Shown here piece by piece: positions 18,138 through 36,570 of a stretch of DNA of 64,000 bases. Position 1 is the first letter of the stretch. Each line of letters starts with the position of its first letter. The notes under the pieces are model-generated. The model ran no database searches. It was not told the DNA's origin and saw only the letters and a list, made by a program, of their open reading frames with translations. The DNA is from Promethearchaeota archaeon Loki_b32. Lineage in GTDB: Archaea > Asgardarchaeota > Lokiarchaeia > Sigyniarchaeales > SOKP01. Both the position numbers and the translations under genes were made by a program. The stretch is taken from positions 171,950 through 235,949 of the forward strand of contig NJBH01000002.1 in assembly GCA_005223125.1 (NCBI GenBank). Direction: 5' to 3'.

Positions 18138-20600
18138 TTAAACTTGTTTCTCCTCGAATGTTTTTCTCCATTTTTCTAACTGTTTTAATAACTTTGGAGT
18201 ATCTGGAACTTGAATAAGTTGTTTTGTATATATTGGATAATATTTGTATAGATTATTTAGCAGATCTAGCCAAAATTTTTGACTTTCTGTTTGATCTGGT
18301 ATTTCTTTTTTTAATTGGAGAATTATCTTTTTCTCTTTTTTAGCTTTGAGAGATTTCAAGAAGTTTTTCATGACCAGTACTCTAAATTCTGAGTATTCTT
18401 CTGGTCTAAAATTAGCTAATGAGTAGCACATATTATCATCAGGAAATGGTAAGAATTTTATTAACTTATCTTCTGGTACTTTAGGATTATCAAGCAACGT
18501 AAGTTCTATATCAGTTTTGCTGATATTTTCTAAAATGGGATATAATTCTCCAGGAGATATTTTTGTTTTTCGCTCTATTTGGTAGGCAATTTCAGAAATT
18601 GGAATATATAGTACAGGAAATTTCTCTTGATTCTCTATTCGAAAATAATAATCCTTTGTTATGATTTGCATAATTAATTCATTTATTTCTTCAGAAAGAT
18701 CATCGGCAGTAAAAGATATTTGGGTCTCCTTCAATTTCTCTTCAAAAATTACTTTATCTTTCTGTTTTTTACCATAACCTACAGAAAGAGATGAAATAAA
18801 ACTATTTGCTGCTTCACCTTCTTCTTCTCCTTTGACTAATCGGCTAGTTTTACTTTCACCTTCCAATGCTCTTTCAAATATTCTTTCACTAAGATATTTT
18901 CTAGCTTTTTGTGCTGCAACTCCTTTTTTCTCAAATTGCTCGGTGACTGAAACAAAATCAATCATCTTTACTAGTTTTCCTAATTCCTTTTTTTCTTCTG
19001 TTATTAATATATCCATATCCTTTTTCGCTAACTGTTCAAGGAGATCATAAACATTTCCTTTAGATAACTGAGTTGCTTTAATTAGTTCTCGCTCAATTAT
19101 TTCAATAGGATAAGCCTCACCTCTTCTGATATATTCACTCCTTATAATTTTATAGACTTTATCTAGGCTTCTCTCTTCTTTACTAACAGTTTCTTTTTGC
19201 AATCGCATAAACATTGAAGTCTCATGCGGTTTTATATAATAAATTAATAAAGTTGTACCTAAGAAAAATATCATAAGCACTGAAATAATATATTTATCCC
19301 ACATTAATACCATACCCACGTCAGTTACTATTTGATTTGGAATTTTACTTGCAAGAGAGAAACGTGTCAATGTTTGAGCAAATACACAAGCTAAAAATAA
19401 TAATATCAAACCGTCTTTTTTGAAGATCAATATGCGCCATCCAAGTGTTTTACCCAGTTTCTTTACTATGCGATATAAAAAGTACATTGAAATAATAAAT
19501 TCAAATACAAAAATAAATGAAACAACAGAACCTGTTGCTCCGATAGTTGCTTGGAAAGCGCTAATAGTCTCATCTTGAAGTAACATGTAAATACTAATTT
19601 GTAGAATCTGAAAGAAAAAAATGAAGAACACTATCAATGAGAAAGTAAAATTATCAAAAGTACCAGCTCTTTTAGTTTCAGCTCGTCGTCTAGTTGATAC
19701 ATATTCAAAAATGATGAAAACCAGAGTCATTACTAAACTAAAGTAAATTAAGGGCATTATCTTGGTCATTTCTAGATTATAAACTGCGACCGCACCGCTT
19801 GGATCTTTAGGTCCGAAAAAATCTAAAGATAAAAATACTAAGAAACTTCTATAAAATAATGAAATTACAATAAGTACGCCTAAAATAAAAAATGGGATAA
19901 TTACTGCAAAAAAATATCTTGATACTGAATATTTTTTAATGAATCTCGCTTCGATTTTTGTTGAAAATTTTCTTGAATAAATATAAAAACGACTACTTAA
20001 TAAGACTAGCCAAATCATCGCTAGCGTTAATAAATACGTCATAAAGTTAATACCTGTTCCAATGTATAAAAACAGGATGTATAATAATAAAATTAGACCA
20101 CAATACAATATTAATTGTTTAATAGCACTATTATTTTCAAAAATAAAGATTCTAAATTTATCTATACTTAGTAAAATGGATAAAACTAGAAAAAAAGCAA
20201 CAATAGTAATTGAGAAGGCAAATGGATTTCCAAATGTTAATATATTAATCCAAGATCCAGGAAGATTAATTGCTGTAATCAAAACTAGCGAATAAAAAAT
20301 AAATATAGCATATAATCCAAAAAATTTCTTTTCGAAAGAATATGATTTTGGTACTTTTCCATCAACATAAACCTCTTGATGAACAATCTTATCATAAAAA
20401 CTGGTCTTAACCTTGGATTTTAAAGAACTTACTTTCCTTCTTTGTCTTGAAGAAAAGGCTTTAACCCCATTCTTAACCCCTATTTTCCCCAGTTTTAAGG
20501 TTTTTGGTAATTTTAATACCTTAAGTTTCTCTTGTTTTTTCTTGGTTTCTGCTTCAGAACCATTTGATTTTTTTGAAGAATTAGATTGCTTATCAGACAT
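18138..20600 (-). CDS. Large multi-pass membrane protein with C-terminal tandem winged-helix-like domains
   Basis: About 10 TM helices, then two similar helix-turn-helix segments (PIEIIERELIKATQLSKGNVYDLLEQL; PISEIAYQIERKTKISPGELYPILENI). Confidence 0.6.
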   Translation of the reverse strand: MSDKQSNSSKKSNGSEAETKKKQEKLKVLKLPKTLKLGKIGVKNGVKAFSSRQRRKVSSLKSKVKTSFYDKIVHQEVYVDGKVPKSYSFEKKFFGLYAIFIFYSLVLITAINLPGSWINILTFGNPFAFSITIVAFFLVLSILLSIDKFRIFIFENNSAIKQLILYCGLILLLYILFLYIGTGINFMTYLLTLAMIWLVLLSSRFYIYSRKFSTKIEARFIKKYSVSRYFFAVIIPFFILGVLIVISLFYRSFLVFLSLDFFGPKDPSGAVAVYNLEMTKIMPLIYFSLVMTLVFIIFEYVSTRRRAETKRAGTFDNFTFSLIVFFIFFFQILQISIYMLLQDETISAFQATIGATGSVVSFIFVFEFIISMYFLYRIVKKLGKTLGWRILIFKKDGLILLFLACVFAQTLTRFSLASKIPNQIVTDVGMVLMWDKYIISVLMIFFLGTTLLIYYIKPHETSMFMRLQKETVSKEERSLDKVYKIIRSEYIRRGEAYPIEIIERELIKATQLSKGNVYDLLEQLAKKDMDILITEEKKELGKLVKMIDFVSVTEQFEKKGVAAQKARKYLSERIFERALEGESKTSRLVKGEEEGEAANSFISSLSVGYGKKQKDKVIFEEKLKETQISFTADDLSEEINELIMQIITKDYYFRIENQEKFPVLYIPISEIAYQIERKTKISPGELYPILENISKTDIELTLLDNPKVPEDKLIKFLPFPDDNMCYSLANFRPEEYSEFRVLVMKNFLKSLKAKKEKKIILQLKKEIPDQTESQKFWLDLLNNLYKYYPIYTKQLIQVPDTPKLLKQLEKWRKTFEEKQV

Positions 20601-22339: not shown

Positions 22340-22624
22340 TTGAAAATGTATAGAGATCAAATCGAAAGTAGAGAAAGCCTGATTAAGTTAGTTAAAAAAG
22401 CAATTGAATTACTCGCCGAAAAAAATATATCTCGAACAGTGATTTTATCCTCCTATAAGATTAATTCGGTTTTGAAAGAAAGCTATGGAGTGAATATCAA
22501 AGTTGATAAAATCGGCAGAGTTCTAAGTAAAATAGCTAAGTTAAATGAATTAAAGAGGCTTAATACTAATATACCTAAATACAAATTACAGATATCCAAA
22601 GTTTCGAGTTTAAAATTTTTTTGA
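22340..22624 (+). CDS. Small basic hypothetical protein (possible winged helix)
   Basis: 94-aa Lys-rich ORF with helix-turn-helix-like spacing (SSYKINSVLKESYGVNIKVDKIGRVLSKI). Confidence 0.55.
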   Translation: MKMYRDQIESRESLIKLVKKAIELLAEKNISRTVILSSYKINSVLKESYGVNIKVDKIGRVLSKIAKLNELKRLNTNIPKYKLQISKVSSLKFF

Positions 22625-22632
22625 GTTAAACT

Positions 22633-24000
22633 TTAGCTTAAATTTCGAAAACCAGTTATTATTTTTTGAAGTTTTTCAAACAATATCTTTATTTCTGAGT
22701 TATGATCTTTAAAATGTTGTAATTCAGTGCTCAATTTTACAATTTTTTCGTCAATATTGTTCTGTAATGGAGTTAATGAAGTTTCAATCTTTTTTTCGAT
22801 ATCTTCGGCTAAGGAATTCACCTGATCATTTGTTGTTGTTATATTTGTTTTATAATTATTTACTAATTCTTCGATATGTAAGATCATTTGAGTACTTTCC
22901 TGTATTTTTTCAGACATTGAAATTCCTAAGGTCTCCAGCTCATTATTTATATCTCCAAAATTATTATCTATGATTGTTTTTATCTCTTCAATTAATTTAT
23001 CTTTTGAACTCGATATATGTTCTTTAAGATCCCTATTAACCTCAACTCGACTATCCACATATTTAGAAATACTCTTTTTAAATTCATTTACAGTTTCGTT
23101 CAATGTTTTCTTAAACCAATTATCCACCTTAATAAGCCCCGAAGATATTGCTTCTTTCATTTTACTCAGCGCTTTACTTATATATTCAGTTCCTCTAGAT
23201 GTTCCTTGATTCATTTCATTAATCCATTCTCCTATTTGAGTCTTAATCATATCCGTGACTTCTTTAGAGAAATTTTCAGTTCCTTGTTGAAACCCCGAAA
23301 TAATCGGATCCATATGCTGATAATCTTTGATTTCATCATCACTTTCTATTGTTTCTTCAGATGTAGGGATTTCTTGTAATTCTCCGGGAGGTGGTTCAAC
23401 AAATTCATTTAGTTCCTTAATAAGAATAGGATCTTTTTTATGAAAATCCTCTGAGAATTTTTGAACCCATTTAAAATACTCTAATGAAGCTGGTAGTTCG
23501 ATTTCAAAGGGAATAGTATGGTATTTTTCAGCTTTAGAATAATCATCTAATCTATAGATTTCAAATCCAAGATTTCCATTTTTGCCCATAAGTGTATGAT
23601 CGAATACAATACCAAAACCATAGGGAAATGTCTCTCCTTGGAAATACTGCAAATTATTTATATCACTTTCTGATAAATATAATCCCCATGAAGGATGAGA
23701 ATGATAATAACCAATTAAATCAGAGGAATACTTTTTCCCAATCTCCTTGAATAAAGAATAAGTATCTTTGTCAAAGCCAATTTCAGCTTTATCTCCATGA
23801 ATTAATGGAACAGCATTTTCTACAATGACCTTATCTTCGACATTATCATATTTTCCTACACAGATCCCCATTACTTCAATATTTTGCTCAAGAGCATCAC
23901 TACCAAAACGTAGTACATGAGTAAGCATATTTCTAAAAGCTTCCTTTTTAATGAAGATATTTCCCTTTTGGATCTTTTCATTAGATTCCTTTTCAGCCAT
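22633..24000 (-). CDS. JAB1/MPN+ (JAMM) isopeptidase with long C-terminal coiled coil, paralogue 2
   Basis: MLTHVLRFG, EVMG, GYYHSHPSWGLYLSESD (HxHx7Sx2D intact); ~230-aa helical tail. Confidence 0.88.
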   Translation of the reverse strand: MAEKESNEKIQKGNIFIKKEAFRNMLTHVLRFGSDALEQNIEVMGICVGKYDNVEDKVIVENAVPLIHGDKAEIGFDKDTYSLFKEIGKKYSSDLIGYYHSHPSWGLYLSESDINNLQYFQGETFPYGFGIVFDHTLMGKNGNLGFEIYRLDDYSKAEKYHTIPFEIELPASLEYFKWVQKFSEDFHKKDPILIKELNEFVEPPPGELQEIPTSEETIESDDEIKDYQHMDPIISGFQQGTENFSKEVTDMIKTQIGEWINEMNQGTSRGTEYISKALSKMKEAISSGLIKVDNWFKKTLNETVNEFKKSISKYVDSRVEVNRDLKEHISSSKDKLIEEIKTIIDNNFGDINNELETLGISMSEKIQESTQMILHIEELVNNYKTNITTTNDQVNSLAEDIEKKIETSLTPLQNNIDEKIVKLSTELQHFKDHNSEIKILFEKLQKIITGFRNLS

Positions 24001-24006
24001 TTTTAC

Positions 24007-25473
24007 TTATTCCTCTCTTTTCTCTAATTTTTCTATCTTGTTCAATAGATCTTGATTTTCTTTTTTTAATTCTGTTATATTTTTTTGTAGAGTTTTGATT
24101 TCAATATCTTGTGTGGCTAATTTGTTTCGGAGGGGTGTCTTTGAGCTCTCTAATAATATTATTGCTGCTTTCAAATCAGAAAGAAAATTTTTAGTTTCTT
24201 TATTCAAATTGATAAAATTTCCGATAACTTTATTTGTATTTTTTGTGAATTTTTCAGAGGAATCTTCAATACTTTTGTTTAGGATTTCTGGTGTTAAATT
24301 TTTTATTGAACCTAATTTATCCGATAGACTTTCTAATACAGATTTTTGTTGCTTCAAAATATCAGAAGATTCTAAACCTTTCACATTATTCTTAGTTAGG
24401 ACTTCTGTCTGTTCATAAAATTTGGTAAATTTAGAATTAAGATTGTCATTTATTTTTTGTTCAAACAAAACATTAAATTGTTCCTCAAGGTCAGTTTTAA
24501 TAGTATTAAATATATCCCTGAAATATTCCTGATCTGAGTCAAATTCTTCGAATTTATCGTCAATATACATATCTAATTCATTTAATTTTTCCTTTATTGA
24601 AAATTTAAAATCCTTTTGTAAATTAGAAATTCCTTCACTAAGGCTGTTTTTTATTGTAATAACATCTTTTCTCATTTGTAAATTATTTTCAACAGTATTC
24701 CTTATAATACCGTCGCTCCAAGAATTGATAATCTCTATTAATGGTAAAATTGATAAATCTAGGAATTTTGTCAAACCTGATTTGAGAGAAGATAAAATCA
24801 TTACCGAATTTAATTCTGGTTTCTTTGCTAGAATTTGACTTTCACTTGGAAAAGCAATGTCTCCAAAAAAATCAGGCATTTCATTAATTTCTAATATTGG
24901 GGGCTCTTTTGAATGAACAAAATTAATTAATTCTATTAATTTTATATAATATTCGAGACTATCTGGAGGTTCCAGTGTTGTTTTTACTTCGTGATAACCA
25001 GACATTTGACCTTTTGCAGGATTATCTAATCTAAATGTACGAAATCCTAAATCTCCTGGAGATTCCAAATGTGTGTGATCAAAAACAATACCTATAGCAC
25101 TTGGATTTGGGGTCTGCCATCCTAATTGGTTTCTTATATCTGTAGAAGAAAAGAATATATTTAGTCCAGGATGAGAGTGGTACCACCCACAACTAAACCA
25201 ATTTTTTTCAGCATATGCTGCATCAACCATAGAAAATGTCACATAATCCTCAGGGGCAAATGCTACTTCAATTGCACCACCATGTGAAATGGGGATAGCA
25301 TCTTCTATGATTACATCATATATTCCTTTTTTATCAGGTTCTCCTTCTATCCTGCCAATTAAAATCCCCATGACTTCTTTAAACTGCCTGCGATCCCTAG
25401 CTTTATTTCCAAACCGTAGGACATGTACGAGCATTTTATAATAGGCATCAGGTTTAATAATAACAGATGTCAA
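24007..25473 (-). CDS. JAB1/MPN+ (JAMM) isopeptidase with long C-terminal coiled coil, paralogue 1
   Basis: KMLVHVLRFG, KEVMGILIG, GWYHSHPGLNIFFSSTD (HxHx7Sx2D intact); ~270-aa helical tail; 6 bp from paralogue 2. Confidence 0.9.
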   Translation of the reverse strand: MTSVIIKPDAYYKMLVHVLRFGNKARDRRQFKEVMGILIGRIEGEPDKKGIYDVIIEDAIPISHGGAIEVAFAPEDYVTFSMVDAAYAEKNWFSCGWYHSHPGLNIFFSSTDIRNQLGWQTPNPSAIGIVFDHTHLESPGDLGFRTFRLDNPAKGQMSGYHEVKTTLEPPDSLEYYIKLIELINFVHSKEPPILEINEMPDFFGDIAFPSESQILAKKPELNSVMILSSLKSGLTKFLDLSILPLIEIINSWSDGIIRNTVENNLQMRKDVITIKNSLSEGISNLQKDFKFSIKEKLNELDMYIDDKFEEFDSDQEYFRDIFNTIKTDLEEQFNVLFEQKINDNLNSKFTKFYEQTEVLTKNNVKGLESSDILKQQKSVLESLSDKLGSIKNLTPEILNKSIEDSSEKFTKNTNKVIGNFINLNKETKNFLSDLKAAIILLESSKTPLRNKLATQDIEIKTLQKNITELKKENQDLLNKIEKLEKREE

Positions 25474-25891
25474 TTGTAATCACGATTTATGTTTTAGATT
25501 TAGATTTAGTTTGTTAATGATATATATATAGTTTTTATTTGGTTTTAAATATTTGAATAATTGAATGGAATTTAAATACTAAAATTTTCTAGTCTGATGG
25601 TTAATGGGAATTTTTGTATTATATTAAGGAAAACAGACATTAACACTGGTTAAATTTTTTTGAACTTGTATTATAAAATGCAGAGAGTTTATACTATACT
25701 AATGATAAGGCCACTAGAATCTAGTCCAATGTAAATAAGTTGAATATATAAAAGTACCATTTTTTTAGAAAAAAGGATAAAAGATCGTTTCTAACTAAAA
25801 TCGCTAATATTTTAGAGAAACGCTATTTTTAAAGAAAGAAAAATATCGTTAATTAAATTAATAATAATAATAAATTATTTGAGTGATATAT

Positions 25892-27082
25892 ATGAGCTTT
25901 AAAATAAAAAGTAATGTTTATTGGGTCGGTAAAGTAGATTGGGAACTCAGAAAATTCCATGGAAACGAATATTCCACGAATCGTGGTTCTACTTACAATT
26001 CCTACTTAATTAAGGAAGAAAAAATTGTACTAATTGATACTGTTTGGAAGCCCTTTTCGAAAGAATTTGTTGAGAATCTATCTAAAGAAATTGATTTAAG
26101 TAAAATTGATTATGTTATTACAAATCACGCAGAGAGTGATCATAGTGGAGCACTTCCGGAACTCATGAAAAAGATACCAGAGACGCCAATATATTGTACT
26201 GCAAATGGCGTAAAGTCAATAAAGGGACATTATCATAAAGATTGGAATTTTCAAGTAGTAAAAACGGGGGATACGTTAGATCTAGGAAATGGTAAACAAT
26301 TAATCTTTGTAGAAATGAGGATGCTTCATTGGCCTGATAGTATGGCATGTTATTTGACCAAAGACAATATACTATTCAGCAATGATGCTTTCGGTCAACA
26401 TTACGCTAATGAATTTATGTATAACGATCTTGTTGATCAAAATGAACTTTATGCAGAGTGCATAAAATATTATGCTAATATTCTCACACCTTTCAGTGCG
26501 TTTGTTGATAAAAAAATAAAAGAGGTTTTAGATCTTAAAATCCCTATTGATATTATTGCAACAAGTCATGGAGTTATTTGGAGAGACAATCCAACTCAAA
26601 TCGTAGAAAAATATTTAACTTGGGCTAACGATTACCAAGAAAACCAAATTACAATATTATACGATACAATGTGGGATGGAACAAAAAGAATGGCCGAAGC
26701 AATTACAAAAGGAATTCGTGAAATTGATAAGAAAGTTAATGTTAAATTGTATAACATAGCCAAAACCGATAAAAACGACTTAATTACAGAGATCTTTAAA
26801 TCTAGGATAATTCTTGTAGGATCACCTACTATTGGTGGAGGAATTCTATCTAGTGTTGCCGAAATTTTGGAGATGATTAAAGGAATGCGTTTTAAAAACA
26901 AGAAAGCGGCGTCATTCGGCTGTTATGGATGGAGTGGAGAATCAATAAAGGTTATAAAGGAACATTTAGAAAAGAGCGGTTTTTCTGTAATTAACGACGG
27001 TATACGCGCTTTGTGGAACCCTGATGATGAAAGTTTGGAAAAATGCGTAGAATTCGGCAGAGAAATAGCTAATACTAAATAA
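25892..27082 (+). CDS. fprA: Flavodiiron protein FprA (NO/O2 reductase)
   Basis: GSTYNSYLI, NHAESDHSG, HWPDSM, SNDAFGQH, SHG, flavodoxin domain YDTMWDGT..GSPT..FGCYGWSGE. Confidence 0.94.
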   Translation: MSFKIKSNVYWVGKVDWELRKFHGNEYSTNRGSTYNSYLIKEEKIVLIDTVWKPFSKEFVENLSKEIDLSKIDYVITNHAESDHSGALPELMKKIPETPIYCTANGVKSIKGHYHKDWNFQVVKTGDTLDLGNGKQLIFVEMRMLHWPDSMACYLTKDNILFSNDAFGQHYANEFMYNDLVDQNELYAECIKYYANILTPFSAFVDKKIKEVLDLKIPIDIIATSHGVIWRDNPTQIVEKYLTWANDYQENQITILYDTMWDGTKRMAEAITKGIREIDKKVNVKLYNIAKTDKNDLITEIFKSRIILVGSPTIGGGILSSVAEILEMIKGMRFKNKKAASFGCYGWSGESIKVIKEHLEKSGFSVINDGIRALWNPDDESLEKCVEFGREIANTK

Positions 27083-27160
27083 TTAAATTTTTTTAATATA
27101 TTTTTTATTTCAAAATGTTAATATCAATAAGTAAGTCATGAAAAAATAAAACCAAAAATA
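26989..27160 (+). repeat. Direct repeat copy 1 (3' end of fprA plus T-rich downstream region)
   Basis: 27010-27160 matches 29154-29304 with one mismatch; the 10-bp AATTAACGAC is also shared upstream. Confidence 0.95.
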
Positions 27161-27239
27161 AATACTTAATTCCGTTTTTTCATTTACTTTTTCACCTTTT
27201 ATATGTAACATTTTTTTAATTTGGGCTAACTGGCAATTC

Positions 27240-27440
27240 TTACGAATCAAACTTTCGGTACAATGAAAATATAATTCCATATGTCTTACGAGCATTCACT
27301 AACCCAAATTTAAGATGCTTGGATTTATCATCTTGCCATAACGCATAACAGCAATTTTCTTTCCCACTTTCTTCGATATATTGCCTTCTAAACGTAATAA
27401 TCTCTCCATTAGGAGTAATTTCATAATTCTCTATTTCCAT
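27240..27440 (-). pseudogene. Short hypothetical ORF or fragment inside islet
   Basis: 66-aa ORF with a possible RBS (AAGGGTTG) but no recognisable family. Confidence 0.35.
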
Positions 27441-27921
27441 ATTGTAAGCAACCCTTTTTCTAATATTATAAATTTATTTTGAAAATATATTTTTTTCAAT
27501 TCTTTTCGCTCTATGATACCATCTGATTCCCAATTCTGTGAGCAGGTAAAACTTCTTTATGCGACCCTAATTTAATTACGCTTTTCCTTATCTTTAAGTA
27601 TTTTTGATCAATAAAGGTCATAATTATGTTATGTCTCAAAAAAATACTTTCCTATTAAAAATTACATTTTAACGTTGATTAATTGGTCCAATAAAAAGGA
27701 TTGTCGTAACTAGTTCATTATCATCTCTTTTATTAGAATTATTCACTGCTATTAACCTTCGTTAGATTTTTCATAGGCTTTGTAGAAAAGCTCAAACATT
27801 TCCTCTTCGGTAATATTCCAATCTTTAAAAAACTATGAAGCAATTGATTTTTAAGTTTTTTTCTGTCTTTATTTATAGAAACAATAGAAAATTATTTAAT
27901 TTTGAATGAATAACTAGATTA

Positions 27922-28920
27922 TTGCTCTTGCGAATATCTAAAATATTACAAAATCTAATAGTTATATCATTAGGAATTCTATTTACCATTAGTTTATTTT
28001 ATTTGACTCTTGAGTTCGGTAATATATTACATCTATTATTAAAACCGTTAACTCCAACACCTTATTATCTTACACTTCCTCCTAATATTCAAGAAATTGG
28101 TTTAATCTGTCTTTGTATTATTATAATAATTATAATATTAGGCTTTATAATAAAAAATGTAACAATATCTTCTATTGGGTCTTTTATTTTATTTCTACCC
28201 ACTTTTGCACATTTTCTTGGGGGAATGTTCTTGCTTGTAGGTATTCAAGTATTACAAGTTATTCTATTTCCTTTGAATTCATCTGAATATGATCTATTAT
28301 CTTTTGGATCTATTATTAAATTGCCTTATATTATCATTGAATATTTTTATAATGATAATATAAAGTTAACATCGTTTTCAATGAATAAAGAGCTTTTTAT
28401 AACATATTTTAGCTATGGCATTATTTTAATTGGACTTGTAATATTTTCCTATGGAGTAATTGCATGGCTTCAAGGAGTTCTTAAAAAAAAAGATATTTTT
28501 GATTTTTCTATTTATAAATATTCACGCCATCCACAATATTTAGGATATCTTCTCTGGAGTTATGGTATATATCTCTTAACATTAATACCCAAAAGTTTAC
28601 CTCGTGGTGGGATACTATTTGAATATACTTTTGTTTGGTATCTCTCAGCACTGATAATTATTAGTGTTGCGTTATATGAGGAAGTCTTAATGAATGATAA
28701 ATTTCCAGAAAAATATGCTGAGTATAGAAAAAAAGTATCGTTTTTAATTCCAATGCCTAAAATATTTAAATCTATATTTACTATGCCAATGAGGTTGGTA
28801 TTTAAAAAAGATTTACCAGAGAACAGAAAAGAAATTCTTTTTCTATTAGTTTTCTATGGATTACTAATTATTTTTATTTCTTTTTTATTAAACCCTTTTC
28901 TAATTATTAATATAAATTGA
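27922..28920 (+). CDS. Isoprenylcysteine carboxyl methyltransferase / PEMT / DUF1295-like membrane protein
   Basis: Multi-TM, IYKYSRHPQYLG, EE..M..KFPEKYAEYRKKVSFLIP. Confidence 0.8.
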   Translation: MLLRISKILQNLIVISLGILFTISLFYLTLEFGNILHLLLKPLTPTPYYLTLPPNIQEIGLICLCIIIIIIILGFIIKNVTISSIGSFILFLPTFAHFLGGMFLLVGIQVLQVILFPLNSSEYDLLSFGSIIKLPYIIIEYFYNDNIKLTSFSMNKELFITYFSYGIILIGLVIFSYGVIAWLQGVLKKKDIFDFSIYKYSRHPQYLGYLLWSYGIYLLTLIPKSLPRGGILFEYTFVWYLSALIIISVALYEEVLMNDKFPEKYAEYRKKVSFLIPMPKIFKSIFTMPMRLVFKKDLPENRKEILFLLVFYGLLIIFISFLLNPFLIININ

Positions 28921-28946
28921 TAAAGAATATTTTTGATTTGGTAACC

Positions 28947-29132
28947 TTACTTTTTATGATGTTTTTCTCTTCCTGACCATAATAAGCCGTATAAGCTCAC
29001 AAACATGATGATCATAACGATTATTTGATATAGTTCACTAGATTCTTTTAATATGAATAAAATAAAAGCCATAGTGATTACAGGAGTAGGGGTGGTAATC
29101 ATGCTAGCCACAGCCACATCTACATGCTTCAC
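28947..29132 (-). pseudogene. Membrane-protein fragment abutting the second repeat copy
   Basis: Two hydrophobic segments; frame begins at the repeat junction. Confidence 0.35.
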
Positions 29133-29143
29133 AGCATAAAACC

Positions 29144-29304
29144 AATTAACGACTTTGTGGAACCCTGATGATGAAAGTTTGGAAAAATGCGTAGAATTCG
29201 GCAGAGATATAGCTAATACTAAATAATTAAATTTTTTTAATATATTTTTTATTTCAAAATGTTAATATCAATAAGTAAGTCATGAAAAAATAAAACCAAA
29301 AATA
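29144..29304 (+). repeat. Direct repeat copy 2 (duplicated fprA 3' end, with 11-bp deletion)
   Basis: Matches 26989-27160 except loss of GGTATACGCGC (26999-27009) and one A/T mismatch. Confidence 0.95.
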
Positions 29305-29320
29305 GAGATTATTTATTTTA

Positions 29321-29971
29321 TTAATGTTCATGTGGTAAAGGTTTTCCACAAAATGGACAAAATCTAAATCCTAAATCTTTACCGCAATAAGGGCAAAATT
29401 CCCCCTCTTTACTAACAGATCCTTTTACTTCAGCCCCCTCTTTAGGTATTGAAGGTAATTGTCTGGTTGTTTTTATTGTTGAGGTTGCTGTTTGCGCTTC
29501 CGCCTTTCTTGCTGCGACTGTCGCTTTAAACGCTTGTCGTCGCTCTTCCTCAAGTTCTCCCTGGGTTTGAGTTCCCTCTGTTTTTACCCACCCTTGAACC
29601 TGAGGCCTTTTTAATTCACTTTCTGGAACTTTGTCTAATTTTATTTCTTTAGTATCTGATAAAGGAACTACATCCTTCTTCTGAGCCCTCTTCTGCACGG
29701 CTTGTTTGGTAAGAGCTTGAGTTGTCTTCATAACTTGATGTGGATTAATATTGGGAATAGCTACAGTTCTAAGAACCCAACCCACGATAAGATTTTGGTT
29801 TGGAAAATCACCTTCGACATCTTCATCCTTAAAAACGTAAGAATCGAGTATATTTTTTCCTTTGAGCATACGCACAGCCCATTTCTCATTAATAAGACCT
29901 AATTGAAGCCTATAAGACGTACCTGGAATGCCTAACTGTCCGGAAAGTGGCTCGAATCCTTTTTCAGTCAA
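29321..29971 (-). CDS. Hypothetical protein with C-terminal zinc ribbon
   Basis: Globular N-terminus, low-complexity linker, FCPYCG...FCPFCG; TTG start with AGTGA upstream. Confidence 0.75.
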   Translation of the reverse strand: MTEKGFEPLSGQLGIPGTSYRLQLGLINEKWAVRMLKGKNILDSYVFKDEDVEGDFPNQNLIVGWVLRTVAIPNINPHQVMKTTQALTKQAVQKRAQKKDVVPLSDTKEIKLDKVPESELKRPQVQGWVKTEGTQTQGELEEERRQAFKATVAARKAEAQTATSTIKTTRQLPSIPKEGAEVKGSVSKEGEFCPYCGKDLGFRFCPFCGKPLPHEH

Positions 29972-30180
29972 TATAAATCACTTTTTTTTTCTAAATTATA
30001 TGGTTTCAGTAATACTATAATGATAAATTTTGAATTTAAATTATTTTTTATTTATTGTAAAAATTTGTCTTATAGTTTAAAATTTTTTTAATTTAGATAA
30101 GTGATTAAAAACACATAAATACAAAAAATTGTATTAATTCGTAAAAAACCATTTTTTAAAAAAAATAAGGAGATTTTACA

Positions 30181-31131
30181 ATGGTTGTTATTATTCCTAA
30201 GAGCGCATATCTAGCAGTAGTAGCTGCTTCTGTTAGATTTGCTAACGCACGTATTCCAAAAGGTGATTGGCTTGAGGTTAGCGGAATTTTTATAGGAAAG
30301 AATGAGGGTGATGATGTAATAATAACAGAAGCATATCCCATTATGCATCAAGAATTAGATAAAGATGCTGTAATCGATCAATATAAATGGTCTGATGACG
30401 ATTATGTTGCTCTCAGTATTATTGATGATGAAGCATTTGGGAAAGGAGAATTTACAATAGGATGGTGGCACAGTCACCCTGGGTTCAAAATTATGTTAAG
30501 CCATATTGACATTCAAACTACTCTCTCTTATCAACAAAATAATCCCTTAGCAATTTCACTGGTCTTCAACCCTACACGACTACTCCGGCAAATTGAAGTG
30601 GCAGATAAGAAAGGAGATCCTGATATACAATTAAAGAACGATCCAGGTTTTAAGATATTCAGGTTAGATGATGTTAATCGTGGTACTGAAGCTTCGTATC
30701 ACACAGCAGATTTCAAAATTGAGGGATACGAAAGCATGGAACAGTTAAATGCATTAACTCAGAAATTTATTGTTGATATCACAAATTTTTTCCCAAAAGA
30801 AAAGGTTCCAAAGACATATAGTAAATTCATTGATGACCGCATAACACAATTGAATAGTTTATTTCTTGGAACTGAAGAATACTTAACTACTTTGACACAT
30901 CGGGGTGAAAAGGCAAGAATACCAGAAGTACTAGAAAATCAAAGTGTAGAAATTCGTAAATTTGTGGCAGAAACATTTGTCAAAATAGAAAATATCAAAG
31001 AATTCATGAATTATTTAGAATATAAAGAGAAGGAAGTAATTATACCCCAAATTGAGAGTATTCTACACAAATGGGATGAACAAGTTGCAGGAGTAGACAA
31101 AAGATTAAAGCAAATAAAGAAGAAATTTTAA
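30181..31131 (+). CDS. JAB1/MPN+ (JAMM) isopeptidase with helical C-terminus, paralogue 3
   Basis: LEVSGIFIG, GWWHSHPGFKIMLSHIDIQT..YQQ (Rpn11/CSN5-like), GFKIFRLDD shared with paralogues 1 and 2; SD AAGGAG. Confidence 0.88.
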   Translation: MVVIIPKSAYLAVVAASVRFANARIPKGDWLEVSGIFIGKNEGDDVIITEAYPIMHQELDKDAVIDQYKWSDDDYVALSIIDDEAFGKGEFTIGWWHSHPGFKIMLSHIDIQTTLSYQQNNPLAISLVFNPTRLLRQIEVADKKGDPDIQLKNDPGFKIFRLDDVNRGTEASYHTADFKIEGYESMEQLNALTQKFIVDITNFFPKEKVPKTYSKFIDDRITQLNSLFLGTEEYLTTLTHRGEKARIPEVLENQSVEIRKFVAETFVKIENIKEFMNYLEYKEKEVIIPQIESILHKWDEQVAGVDKRLKQIKKKF

Positions 31132-31255: not shown

Positions 31256-33460
31256 ATGAGAAAAATTAACTTCCCCTTTTCTGCGATTCTTGGTCAAGAT
31301 AAAATGAAGATGGGGCTAGTTCTGAATGTTATTGACCCTGCTATTGGAGGGATCCTCTTAACTGGTCACCAAGGTACTGGGAAAAGCACAGCAGTAAGAT
31401 CTCTCGTAGAATTGATGCCTCAAATAGAAGTCATTAAAGGTTGTGAATTTTCATGCGATCCTAATTCAGATATCGATGATTTATGTCAAGGGTGTATTGA
31501 GAGAAAGGAAAGGAAAACAATTGAGACTGAATTCAGGGATATGTGGCTAGTAAATTTACCTTTGGGTGTTACAGAAGATATGGTATGTGGAAGTCTATCT
31601 ATAGACAAGGTTTTAACTGAAGGAATAAGAGCATTACATCCAGGTTTACTTGCTAAAGCAAATAGAGGAATTCTATATGTGGATGAAATAAATCTGCTTC
31701 AAGATCATATTGTCGATGTCCTCTTAGACTCTGCTGCCTCAGGAGTAAATATTATAGAAAGAGAAGGCATTTCTGTATCACACCCTTCAAGATTCGTATT
31801 AGTTGGTTCTATGAATCCAGAAGAAGGTGATTTGCGACCTCAAATTGCTGATCGTCTCGGCTTAGAAGTTAGAATAAAAGCACCTCGAGATCCCGAATTA
31901 CGTGCTGAAATAACAAGAAGAGTTATAGAATTTGATGATCATCCAAAAGAATTCATTAAAAATTTTGAAGATGAACAGGAGAAATTAAGGCAACATATAT
32001 TAAATGCTAGAAATGTCTTGAAAGAAGTTCAAATTCCGAGCTCTGTTTATGAATTCGTATCAAAAATTGTAAATGAATTAGAGATATTTTCACAAAGAGC
32101 AGATATTACTTTTATAAGATGTGCTAGAGCTAATGCTGCTTTGAATAATAGAAAGGAAATATTAGAAGATGATCTAAATGTAGCAATGGATTTAGTATTT
32201 GAACATAGAATTCAATCACTTCATTATGAAATGACACCAGAAGAGATTAAATCTAAGATTGCTGAAGTTTATGGAAAAATAAAAGAAGCTTATGAGAATA
32301 CTAAAGTTCTCCAACCGAATAGAGAAACCGAGGGACCTTTAAAACATGATGATGGCTCTCAAAAGGAGTTTAAACGTCAATCGGTCGACCCTGATAAAGT
32401 TGACATTCCTGAGACTCAAGAACAGAAATTACCTCCTCCAAAATATCCAGATAACAAAAAAAGAAACCCTAAACCTGCCGGTGGTTGGAAGGTAAAGAAT
32501 ATTCCTTATGATGATGATCTTAGATTTTTTGAAGATAAAAAAACAGCAATTACATTTATTTATAAGATGGAAAAGAAAATGACATCCATCCTAGATAATA
32601 TTAGAAAAGATCGAAAGATATCTGATTATGGTGGTAGAGGAATAGGAAGGAGAATTAAAATATCGTCATCTCAAAAAGGAAGATATGTGTCTTATAGAAC
32701 CCCAATTCGTGAACAACCAAACAGGATTGCTTTAGATGCAACAATCAGAAATTATCTTAAAAATACTATTTATAATAAAACAGAGATTGATTTTCCTATA
32801 CATTTTAATAGATACGATTTAATGGATAAAATCTATGAGTATAGAGCACCATTAGCTCTCTTTTTTGTTCTAGATAGTTCAGCATCTATGCATTATGTAA
32901 TAAAACAAATGACAGATGTAATCTTATCTCTACATCGGGAGGGGTATAGAAAGAGAGATAAAATAGCATTAATAATTTTTCGTGGTAAAGAGGCTGTTGT
33001 CTTGCAGAAACCAACAGTTAATTTTAAAACAGCGGTTAATAAATTGAAAAAAATCGAGGGTAAATCATATACTCCAATGGCTGCAGGACTAAAAAAAGTA
33101 TCTGAACTAATAAGAGTTGAAAAATTGAAAGCGAGAAACATTATTCCCATTGTCTTTATCTGTAGCGACTGTGGAGCAAATATTTCCGTTAAATATCCTG
33201 ATTTAATAGCACAAATTGAGACAGATTATACTCTAATTACAAATGAATTAAAAGAGCTAACAAAAAAATTATCAAAACAAAATATCCATATGGTTGTGCT
33301 CGAACCGAAAAAATCCTATGCAACACATGCTCTGGGGGTACATACATATTCCGCAGGACATATTAAAAAGAACTTTAAGAAGTACGCAAATGCTCAGATT
33401 TATAAATTCAACAAATATAATCCCAACTCTTTAATATTAGAATTGAAAAAGATTCTCTAA
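31256..33460 (+). CDS. ChlI/ChlD-like (chelatase-type) AAA+ ATPase fused to a VWA domain
   Basis: FPFSAILGQ, GHQGTGKST, PGLLAKANRGILYVDEINLL, SMNPEEG; Pro-rich linker; VLDSSASM MIDAS, YTPMAAG, SDCGAN. Confidence 0.9.
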   Translation: MRKINFPFSAILGQDKMKMGLVLNVIDPAIGGILLTGHQGTGKSTAVRSLVELMPQIEVIKGCEFSCDPNSDIDDLCQGCIERKERKTIETEFRDMWLVNLPLGVTEDMVCGSLSIDKVLTEGIRALHPGLLAKANRGILYVDEINLLQDHIVDVLLDSAASGVNIIEREGISVSHPSRFVLVGSMNPEEGDLRPQIADRLGLEVRIKAPRDPELRAEITRRVIEFDDHPKEFIKNFEDEQEKLRQHILNARNVLKEVQIPSSVYEFVSKIVNELEIFSQRADITFIRCARANAALNNRKEILEDDLNVAMDLVFEHRIQSLHYEMTPEEIKSKIAEVYGKIKEAYENTKVLQPNRETEGPLKHDDGSQKEFKRQSVDPDKVDIPETQEQKLPPPKYPDNKKRNPKPAGGWKVKNIPYDDDLRFFEDKKTAITFIYKMEKKMTSILDNIRKDRKISDYGGRGIGRRIKISSSQKGRYVSYRTPIREQPNRIALDATIRNYLKNTIYNKTEIDFPIHFNRYDLMDKIYEYRAPLALFFVLDSSASMHYVIKQMTDVILSLHREGYRKRDKIALIIFRGKEAVVLQKPTVNFKTAVNKLKKIEGKSYTPMAAGLKKVSELIRVEKLKARNIIPIVFICSDCGANISVKYPDLIAQIETDYTLITNELKELTKKLSKQNIHMVVLEPKKSYATHALGVHTYSAGHIKKNFKKYANAQIYKFNKYNPNSLILELKKIL

Positions 33461-34764: not shown

Positions 34765-35502
34765 CTACTGAATTATTGCCTTTATCTTAGCGATATATTG
34801 GCCTAGTTTCCTCCCATCTGACTCAGGAACCGCAAGTGCTAAAACCCTATTCTCATCTAAATCATGTAATATGACTGATCCATTCTCTCCACCTATTATA
34901 GAATACTCCATATGACTTTCTAATAAGACACCAGATAAATTATATAATGCTGCAACCATAGCTGAAAGAATTGGTTCAGGCATAGTGGATTGAATTTTAA
35001 TCGGCAATCCATCTTTAGTAATTATTGCTAAAACGAGAGTATTCGGGATTGCTCTCTTTAGACCTTTAAATATTTCTTCTTTAAGAATGTCCGATGTTTC
35101 AATAATTGCAGATACTTTTAGAGCCAATCTTTGTAGTCTATTTATATATGAATCTAATCCTTCGAGTTCCGCCATTTCTCGATTTAAATAAGTTATCATG
35201 GTTATATTTTCTGCCAAAATAGATAGAACAATCTTTTCCTTACCAATAATTAAGTTATAAGATACTTCCTGATTCAGGGAGTCCCTCAGCATTTTAGATG
35301 AAAGAAATACAAGGCTACTATTTGCTGCTGTAACTTCACCTGTTGTCATCTTAATATCTTTTTTGAAAATACTTGCGATTTTTGTACCCTCCGCCGTTCC
35401 AATATTAATACCAATTATGGCTGATGCTGATTCAAGCTCTTTTTCTATTATTTCTAACACATCAGATTTTAATTCTTCTAAAATTTTTTCTTGTTTCTCC
35501 AT
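34765..35502 (-). CDS. Tandem Roadblock/LC7 (MglB/LAMTOR-like) domain protein
   Basis: Two ~120-aa units (GINIGTAEGTKIAS..; LAIITKDGLPI..LSAMVAAL..IIGGENGSVIL..LGQY). Confidence 0.8.
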   Translation of the reverse strand: MEKQEKILEELKSDVLEIIEKELESASAIIGINIGTAEGTKIASIFKKDIKMTTGEVTAANSSLVFLSSKMLRDSLNQEVSYNLIIGKEKIVLSILAENITMITYLNREMAELEGLDSYINRLQRLALKVSAIIETSDILKEEIFKGLKRAIPNTLVLAIITKDGLPIKIQSTMPEPILSAMVAALYNLSGVLLESHMEYSIIGGENGSVILHDLDENRVLALAVPESDGRKLGQYIAKIKAIIQ

Positions 35503-35745
35503 AAATCAATATTAGGATATTTGAAAATAAAAAGGTATTCTAATAATTCAGTAATAATTTTAAGAATATATGTAATAATATTAGTAAAGCTCTCAACATA
35601 AAAGACAAATTTATTACTAAAAATGGGAAAAAATGTAATCATTATAGTAAAAATTATAAATATTAAATATTATGACCTTTTTAATAGATTACATTTTAAC
35701 TTCAATTACCAATCCAATTTTAATTCAGATACAAAGCGATCTTTA

Positions 35746-36570
35746 ATGAATGATATAAATTTAATGAATGAAATCAATTCCTTAAAAAAACAATTAGAGG
35801 CTAAAGATAACCTCATCAAATTAAAAGATGAAATGGTTAAGGCCCTTGAAAATTCTCTAAAATTAAAAGATGAAACGATTGAAACTCTCGAGAAAACAAT
35901 AAAAACTAAAGACGAAAGCGTGAAAACATTAGAAAAAACTGTAGCACTAAAGGAAGAAGAAATTAAAAAATTAAGTTCTTCTACTGTTAATCAAAATCTC
36001 TTAAAAGAAAAGGATGAAACAATCGCTCAACTTCAAAAAGAAATAGAAATTTTAAATGAAGAATTAACTAAAGCAGATGAAGATTTAGAAAGCTTAGAAT
36101 TAGAAATTGAGAAACTTAGAAAGGCTCAAACTAGTTCTATGGATGTAGAAATTATTGATTTTACAAATGCAAAAATAAATAAATCTGAAATTCTAGCAAA
36201 AATGCGAGAAATATTAGAGAATGCTATTTCTAATGTTACAATTGTGGTTCCTAACATTGAAGAATTACAAGATCTTTACCTTTATGAACTTAGATCCTCT
36301 GTTTCTATGAATATAGCTTGTGGAATTAATCCAGGAATCGATCAACATGCCGAACTCCTAGATGAATTTGAAAGTCTAGATAACATTTCTCTTAGAAATT
36401 ATGAAAGAAAAGATAGGTATGTATTAACAAGAGATGGAGAAGAACTTTTAATAGCTGTTATAGGGAAATCTGAAGACAATAATCTAGTAATCCATACAAA
36501 AGATCCAAAACACTTCCGTATCTTAAATTCATTAGCCACAGAAAGTTGGATACAGAGTAGAAAAGTCTGA
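35746..36570 (+). CDS. Coiled-coil protein with C-terminal TrmB/PLD-like alpha/beta domain
   Basis: 14-residue periodic LKDE/TKDE..LE repeats, then EILAKMREILENAISNVTIVVP..RDGEELLIAV; start at MNDINL assumed. Confidence 0.6.
   Translation: MNDINLMNEINSLKKQLEAKDNLIKLKDEMVKALENSLKLKDETIETLEKTIKTKDESVKTLEKTVALKEEEIKKLSSSTVNQNLLKEKDETIAQLQKEIEILNEELTKADEDLESLELEIEKLRKAQTSSMDVEIIDFTNAKINKSEILAKMREILENAISNVTIVVPNIEELQDLYLYELRSSVSMNIACGINPGIDQHAELLDEFESLDNISLRNYERKDRYVLTRDGEELLIAVIGKSEDNNLVIHTKDPKHFRILNSLATESWIQSRKV

Follow-up and report, generated by a model that had tools for sequence, protein, structure and literature searches.

Three genes of the JAMM family, here named A, B, and C, were analyzed in a 64,000-nucleotide stretch of the Promethearchaeota archaeon Loki_b32 genome (contig NJBH01000002.1, positions 171,950 to 235,949; hereafter the window). 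The reading we favor, which we consider probable, is that B and A form a co-translated, stalked heterodimer of one active and one often-dead MPN subunit that evolved independently, and that C is a separate neighbor. The original prediction, made from the sequence of the window, had grouped all three proteins into one heteromeric complex with every site still active, a possible precursor of the proteasome lid, signalosome (CSN), and BRISC complexes.

The three open reading frames (ORFs) were confirmed at the predicted positions (Table 1), with A and B separated by 6 bp and with the catalytic Glu and the HxHx7Sx2D motif intact in each. The catalytic residues are E42/H100/H102/S110/D113 in A, E33/H99/H101/S109/D112 in B, and E32/H97/H99/S107/D110 in C. 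Pfam JAB matched all three above its cut-off (E = 1.9e-9, 1.8e-11, and 1.5e-12 for A, B, and C, respectively). HxHx7Sx2D occurred 13 times in the ORFs of the genome, eight of these being JAMM proteins, compared to 0-3 times in shuffles. The motif VF(D/N)...GF..(F/Y)RLD was common to the three proteins; the longer form proposed earlier, G.VF(D/N)..GF..(F/Y)RLD, held from VF(D/N) onward, as C reads SLVFN and not G.VF.

A purine-rich GAGAGGA lies within the last codons of B and precedes the ATG of A. B and A are apparently a translation-coupled tandem pair in nearly all relatives. Adjacency of B and A, with a gap of -8 to 57 nucleotides (nt), was found in 29 of 30 genomes, which bears out the clustering expected from the synteny check. 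In a redundant set of informative loci, it was found in 177 of 186, and five of the nine exceptions were loci of other families or a missed divergent A.

The catalytic state of both proteins was compared across 122 distinct B-A pairs. The E/H/H/S/D set of B was intact in 120 pairs, the remaining two were N-terminally truncated, and a changed catalytic residue was found in none. The motif of A was intact in 44 of the 122 pairs, and the others displayed approximately 29 different patterns (e.g., EIRTT, EHRSD, ESHSA, and QHHSD). An active B was combined with an inactive A in 75-78 of the 122 pairs, with A dead in about 60-64%. A separate protein search covering closer relatives showed A intact in 74 of 121. 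Both motifs are intact in this genome. Thus, because the motif of A is broken in most pairs, the claim that all subunits are still active fits this genome and its sub-lineage, not the whole system. A 291-amino-acid (aa) short-tailed A/B-like MPN copy was also seen in another genome (G043, L359:5588-6463).

The zinc site of A was lost independently at least six times. With the catalytic columns left out of the tree, parsimony gave 6-7 changes at this site, and 11-12 losses if regain was disallowed. Dead A copies are full length and remain under purifying selection, with a median dN/dS in the MPN domain of 0.15 (25 disjoint pairs) compared to 0.13 in live A (14 disjoint pairs) and 0.10 in B. Furthermore, they retain the interface-region residues W178, E184, and P170, and their conservation was 0.69 at the modelled interface compared to 0.60 elsewhere in the domain.

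A complex of B and A was predicted with a model score of 0.63, compared to 0.01 for the best of three controls. Of 80 solved complexes, 58 attained the mark applied to this score, as did 2 of 110 mismatched pairs. Contacts agreed between the B+A runs to at least 26%, with a partner pLDDT of at least 63. The confident interface was made up of helices 1 and 4 from both chains, with the helix-4 contacts in register (175-175, 182-182, and 186-186), i.e., parallel. The model supports, without demonstrating, the binding of the two MPN domains. For the 25 best contacts of the model, covariation between the genes had a mean z of 0.49 compared to 0.16 for permuted columns (p = 0.009, with relatedness uncontrolled).

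Several points weigh against the favored reading. Only the heads (106-131 of ~630) were covered by confident B-A contacts, the interface in the model has near symmetry, and the covariation is weak (Neff ~59), with its top-ranked pairs being phylogenetic noise. The passing score may come from the likeness of the pair to solved MPN dimers. Close cousins of a true partner also reached the mark (10 of 12 colicin pairs), so the B+A score cannot separate B-A from B-B or A-A. Genes for ubiquitin (Ub), E1, E2, or E3 were not found at the A/B/C locus. Finally, in 39 of the 42 cases with both genes on one contig, C lies less than 5 kb from B, which would be compatible with a functional link.

The symmetry of the interface bears on another account, in which A and B are co-regulated and form homodimers or freely mixing dimers, with dead A acting as a substrate-trapping or dominant-negative regulator. 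The interface falls on the helix-1/helix-4 surface of the crystal homodimer of CsRpn11 from Caldiarchaeum subterraneum (PMC6043591). Other Lokiarchaeia families encode single active long-tailed MPNs of 470-500 aa that, having no tandem twin, would have to self-pair. We regard this account as unlikely, since it fits poorly with the tight coupling of the A and B genes and with the weak but specific inter-gene covariation. A was also never found without B in the loci examined, a biased set in which most loci were fetched with B.

Helical tails had been predicted on all three proteins. A and B carry long rods as expected, and the tail of C is instead a compact three-helix bundle (pLDDT 92.6). The AlphaFold2 model of B (mean pLDDT 73.9, pTM 0.40) consisted of the MPN domain, a helix at 173-187, a low-confidence linker, and a single helix at 243-484. 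The rod of A would likewise be helical, judging from its periodicity and its homology to the B tail (40 bits). Both tails displayed hendecad-type periodicity turning heptad toward the end, and neither is detectably homologous to the tail of C. The rod length of A is almost invariant in relatives, and indel-free rod segments of 59 and 48 residues were found in 118 of 118 pairs. A and B tail lengths were not correlated (Spearman 0.08).

The Rpn11/CSN5-type JAMM fold and the Asgard origin proposed for the genes were both supported. Foldseek matched the B model to BRCC36, CSN6, and Rpn11 (E = 4e-8 to 2e-6), and the named relatives are mostly Promethearchaeota. An affinity of B to EMC8/9 (UPF0172), hinted at by a Pfam match, was unsupported, with no EMC chain among the 60 best PDB profile matches. 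JAMM1 desampylases, the short prokaryotic JAMMs, consist of a single ~140-aa domain and cluster apart from Rpn11-like enzymes. A, B, and C, at 316-488 aa, fall outside this length class. Among the MPN frames listed from 81 Asgard genomes, all those longer than 400 aa were in Lokiarchaeia. Single intact MPNs of 472-501 aa occur in other Lokiarchaeia families; they have no twin, and their tails are weakly similar (12-19 bits). These may represent the pre-duplication state, although in the tree they were not sister to A+B.

C differs from the pair in several respects. Its model (pLDDT 92.6, pTM 0.88) displayed the MPN domain with a compact bundle of helices at 209-240, 244-276, and 281-315, and its nearest fold was Rpn11 4o8x_B (Z 17.3, root-mean-square deviation 3.5, 152 residues aligned). 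The tail matched spectrin-type bundles at a Z of only 10-11, an arrangement that is common by the tool's own account. E32, H97, H99, and D110 were kept in 34 of 34 full-length orthologues. In this genome, C lies 4.7 kb from B and is encoded on the other strand; in 42 of 42 same-contig cases it was divergent from B, at a median distance of 1.15 kb. In the sister family, two genomes, G051 (a single contig, 93% complete) and G016, carry C and no match of A/B length, and in G037 B-A and C are on separate contigs. Given the tight adjacency of B and A and the broken link to C in the sister family, B-A is a tight unit and C a looser neighbor. Thus, the heteromer of the original prediction keeps its B-A part as a predicted complex; a third subunit is unsupported, as C has another tail fold, is divergently encoded, and is found without A and B. 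C, which has a different Ins-1 loop, is probably a stand-alone, monomeric deconjugase.

Inserts of 30-32 nt, ten of them distinct, were found at one site within the zinc motif of C orthologues (HSHPGF|KVM, window 30486/30487) and are absent here. In all ten, the central helix was paired in 4 of 4 positions, including a compensatory GGTT/AACT form, with 3-nt bulges, and removal of the insert restores the frame. The insert-bearing orthologues were L013, L018, L020, L041, L196, L212, L219, L220, L242, and L259, compared to 96 distinct intron-free copies, that of this genome among them. These inserts are candidate bulge-helix-bulge, tRNA-type mRNA introns, similar to the bulge-helix-bulge intron in the crenarchaeal cbf5 mRNA (PMC2738675). 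Two further copies related to C were seen, namely a motif-less C-like paralogue near an intact copy in G002 (L355:502-1398) and a degenerate MPN fragment close to C in G043 (L064:1-406).

The relationship to eukaryotic MPN proteins was analyzed on a tree of 126 rows and 143 columns (LG+C20+F+G4; bootstrap values are rough). Its eukaryotic members were Rpn11 and CSN5 only, of which a sample was checked by C-terminal Pfam domains; BRCC36, Abraxas, Rpn8, and CSN6 are not among its rows. A and B were sisters (99/87), and A, B, C, and the other long paralogues formed a Lokiarchaeia-only clade (99/98). This clade and the E1/E2-operon MPN, a member of its nearest outside clade, formed a wider Asgard clade (96/95), whose join to the eukaryotes was unresolved (85/88). 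Rpn11+CSN5 formed their own clade (100/100), and the short JABs were a long-branch outgroup (100/100). The proposed MPN phylogeny separates A, B, and C from the short prokaryotic JABs and also leaves them outside the Rpn11+CSN5 clade.

A+B as sister to Rpn11+CSN5 was rejected (p-AU 0.015), and the whole Loki clade in that position was not rejected by the test (p-AU 0.135). Rpn11 and CSN5 have no counterpart to the insert of 8-9 residues that follows helix 1 in the Loki clade. Another Asgard MPN scored 87 bits against yeast Rpn11, compared to 34 bits for B, and in profile searches BRCC36 scored no better than Rpn11 or CSN5. RPN11_C, CSN5_C, MitMem_reg, and BRCC36_C had no match in A, B, or C, and eukaryotic controls searched with this library did yield RPN11_C and CSN5_C. 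No match among the listed eukaryotic MPN C-terminal families was found in 34 C orthologues at E<=1. Genes for PCI partners with a solenoid and a winged helix were not found at the locus. The best PCI match of the genome was a 795-aa protein (L351:735-3122, contig C22) that scored as UFL1/DDRGK-like. Its tandem winged helices gave PCI, UFL1, and DDRGK scores, and its C-terminus resembles Vps28.

These results bear on the proposal that A, B, and C make up a single multi-MPN complex, every site active, surviving from a lid/CSN/BRISC precursor. All three motifs are intact here, the three genes remain clustered across the family, the MPN folds are nearest to Rpn11, CsRpn11, CSN5, and BRCC36, and the sister position of the Loki clade survived the test. 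We nevertheless hold it to be highly improbable: most pairs have a dead A, and C has a different tail fold and also occurs alone. The precursor role in particular is disfavored, because the A/B/C duplications fall within a Lokiarchaeia-only clade, A+B is rejected as sister to Rpn11+CSN5, and the helix-1 insert is missing from those proteins. The tails also match none of the eukaryotic MPN C-terminal families (RPN11_C, CSN5_C, and BRCC36_C included), the tailed forms above 400 aa listed from the 81 Asgard genomes were confined to Lokiarchaeia, and other Asgard MPNs are nearer to Rpn11. A further reading, very unlikely in our judgment, would make stalked B-A an archaeal MPN+/MPN- deubiquitinase heterodimer in transition from a single active enzyme through active twins to enzyme and pseudo-enzyme. 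The wider Asgard clade would then be sister to, or have given rise to, certain MPN subunits of eukaryotes (Rpn11/CSN5 or Rpn8/CSN6/BRCC36/Abraxas), and the paired architecture would be pre-eukaryotic.

The host genome (4.13 Mb, 95.5% complete, 29.9% GC) contains eight JAMM genes, namely A, B, C, and genes for proteins of 373, 524, 275, 164, and 225 aa. The 373-aa and 524-aa paralogues are on other contigs, and the 225-aa protein is a distant family member. In total, three further paralogues of the A/B/C clade or its sister clade are encoded on other contigs; thus, the window holds half of a larger expansion. In the 524-aa paralogue (C2:13230-14804), the MPN domain is fused to a C-terminal helical-repeat (TPR-like) region, and N-terminal fusions of this type were seen in other families of the same MPN clade (L085, L086, L111, and L362).

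Ub, E1, and E2 genes are present elsewhere in the host genome. The 275-aa MPN sits in a Ub-Ub-E1-E2-MPN operon (contig C44), and the 164-aa JAMM precedes E1-E2 genes. With the short Ub-operon MPN as query, no homologue was found among longer proteins. Judging from family membership and the operon context of the sister clade, the substrates of B are likely to be ubiquitin-like conjugates from these Ub/E1/E2 operons. The Ins-1 loop of B was invariant at P61, S63, H64, G65, E69, and V70; in Rpn11-type enzymes, this loop is the clamp for the substrate C-terminus.

A different role would keep the B-A pair and make it something other than mainly a deubiquitinase, with the rods as its main working part, whether by tethering, by forming a filament, or as a membrane-shaping scaffold, while B would cut a non-ubiquitin substrate such as a SAMP/Urm-type modifier, a zinc-ribbon protein, or a pro-peptide. 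Such a role would suit a locus with no ubiquitin-system genes in a host that already has two MPNs inside E1/E2 operons, and the invariant rod segments are ruler-like. It is distinctly unlikely in our view, given the invariant clamp loop of B and the operon linkage of the sister clade to Ub/E1/E2.

For the favored stalked heterodimer, the following mechanism is proposed. The B-A pair would have arisen by tandem duplication within one Lokiarchaeia order. In the model, the MPN domains of B and A pair via a parallel helix-1/helix-4 bundle, and their tails would most likely run together as a parallel coiled-coil stalk, mostly hendecad and ~33-36 nm long. Such a stalk would space or tether the heads and hold the catalytic head at a set distance from an anchor. 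B is predicted to be a zinc isopeptidase that removes a ubiquitin-like modifier, and A may stabilize or activate B, as KIAA0157 does BRCC36. If A is kept mainly as a structural or activating partner, its zinc site would be dispensable and hence repeatedly lost. C would be an older paralogue and a compact MPN+ enzyme that stays nearby through the shared divergent intergenic region, not as a subunit.

In the host family, the zinc-ribbon gene, B, and A usually follow one another on one strand, and C and the ChlI/vWA ATPase gene are divergent from the zinc-ribbon gene. The zinc-ribbon gene was immediately upstream of B in 146 of the 171 loci showing it. By synteny alone, its product is a candidate third member of the B-A operon and the best adaptor candidate. 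The gene has 39.9% GC compared to 29.4% for the window. Its ~95-aa N-terminal domain is highly conserved and had no match in PDB or Atlas. The flavodiiron/PEMT-like block is not part of the B-A system; its insertion accounts for the 4.7 kb B-C spacing here and also parts the zinc-ribbon gene from B. A scan for promoters and terminators with bacterial-type models remained at chance level.

Table 1. Features of the B-A and C locus in window coordinates.
Feature	Coordinates	Strand	Description
A	22633-24000	-	455 aa; MPN domain and ~220-residue rod; sister paralogue of B; proposed incipient MPN- partner
B	24007-25473	-	488 aa, TTG start; MPN+/JAMM domain 1-~165, helix 4 at 173-187, linker, ~240-residue rod; proposed constant catalytic subunit
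C	30181-31131	+	316 aa; MPN+ domain, longer Ins-1 loop, C-terminal three-helix bundle; divergent neighbor
Rod of A	22645-23313	-	Residues ~230-452; ~33 nm; period 3.58-3.68
Rod of B	24022-24747	-	Residues 243-484; ~36 nm if a straight single helix; period 3.65 (hendecad) at start, 3.53 (heptad) at end
Three-helix bundle of C	30805-31125	+	Residues 209-315; spectrin/BAG-sized
Zinc-ribbon protein	29321-29971	-	216 aa; conserved N-terminal domain, motif-bearing linker, C-terminal zinc ribbon (Pfam DZR below cut-off)
Inserted block	25883-28920	+	Flavodiiron/FprA-like protein and PEMT/DUF1295-like membrane protein; lineage-specific
ChlI/ChlD-like AAA+-vWA gene	31256-33460	+	Usually just 3' of C in the family; not beside C in G051, G016, and G037; link to C putative
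Conserved 94-aa gene	22340-22624	+	Converges on A; without family match

In two genomes, the ChlI/vWA gene is split at a similar point into frames of ~531 and ~197 aa (L071:1405-3640 and L074:5011-7250), which could be a split gene, a frameshift, or another small intron. In G051 and G016, C diverges from a TATA-binding-protein-like gene (L079:10356-10976 and L080:10882-11511) that replaces the zinc-ribbon gene; this 206-aa neighbor was rejected as a zinc-ribbon homologue, being TATA-binding-protein-like by sequence. Other conserved neighbors (18138-20600 and 34765-36570) encode an 820-aa membrane protein whose C-terminal part is winged-helix-like, a coiled-coil protein, and a tandem Roadblock protein.

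The proteasome lid, the signalosome, eIF3, and BRISC are each built around an active/pseudo-enzyme MPN pair. In eukaryotes, where this step was taken long ago and has become fixed, the origin of such pairs from a self-pairing enzyme is difficult to study. Within the B-A family, natural pairs of two active subunits (as in this genome) occur alongside about a dozen active-dead pairs of separate origin, and other families hold candidate single-gene relatives, which would allow a biochemical comparison of the steps. The stalks of ~35 nm suggest that Lokiarchaeia have a tethered deconjugation step not yet described. The present evidence does not reveal the ancestor of the eukaryotic MPN complexes. 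No description of the B-A family was found in the literature searched, of which coverage was incomplete.

Among known systems, CsRpn11 (PDB 6FJU), an archaeal Rpn11-like deubiquitinase, was the best PDB sequence match for B (41 bits). Its crystal dimer is parallel via helices 1 and 4, as in the B-A model (PMC6043591). Unlike A and B, it is short, monomeric in solution, and encoded beside a Ub-E1-E2-E3 operon (PMC6043591), and its nearer Asgard relatives (100-127 bits) are a different group from A/B/C. In many CsRpn11-like MPNs from other Asgard classes, the C-terminus is a hydrophobic stretch that by eye resembles a membrane anchor (L115, L117, L121, L127, L130, L131, L138, L141-L144, L146, L150, L151, and L153). 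The Asgard Ub-E1-E2-operon MPN (275 aa here) shares the helix-1 insert and the helix-4 region with A, B, and C; unlike A and B, it has an N-terminal helical extension, no C-terminal tail, and occurs in several Asgard classes.

Rpn11-Rpn8 and CSN5-CSN6 resemble B-A in the JAMM motif with its EVxG and GW(Y/W)HSHP context, in the fold, and in pairing an active with an inactive subunit. However, their tails are unrelated to those of A and B, and lid-type PCI subunits were not found at the A/B locus. Rpn8-Rpn11 is described as antiparallel (PMC6043591), whereas the modelled B-A helix-4 contacts are parallel. An organization of the Rpn11-Rpn8 type has been described as not known in archaea (PMC6043591). 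BRCC36-KIAA0157/Abraxas, the core of BRISC and BRCA1-A, likewise combines an MPN+ enzyme with a pseudo-enzyme paralogue through a pseudo-two-fold head contact involving helix 1, with helical extensions behind both domains, and KIAA0157 activates BRCC36 (PMC4579573). In its bundle, each chain contributes two short helices that fold back onto the heads (PMC4579573), compared to ~35-nm rods in B-A. The BRISC/BRCA1-A core is further marked by a short alpha4/alpha5 coiled-coil bundle and a super-dimer, and the tail of B was modelled as one helix of 240 residues. Stalks of this length had no counterpart among the solved MPN proteins returned by the searches. In BRCC36-KIAA0157, the partner is always dead, whereas A is only mostly dead, and partners of the BRCC45/MERIT40 type were not found at the A/B/C locus. 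Taken together, the resemblance of B-A to Rpn11-Rpn8, CSN5-CSN6, and BRCC36-Abraxas is best read as parallel evolution.

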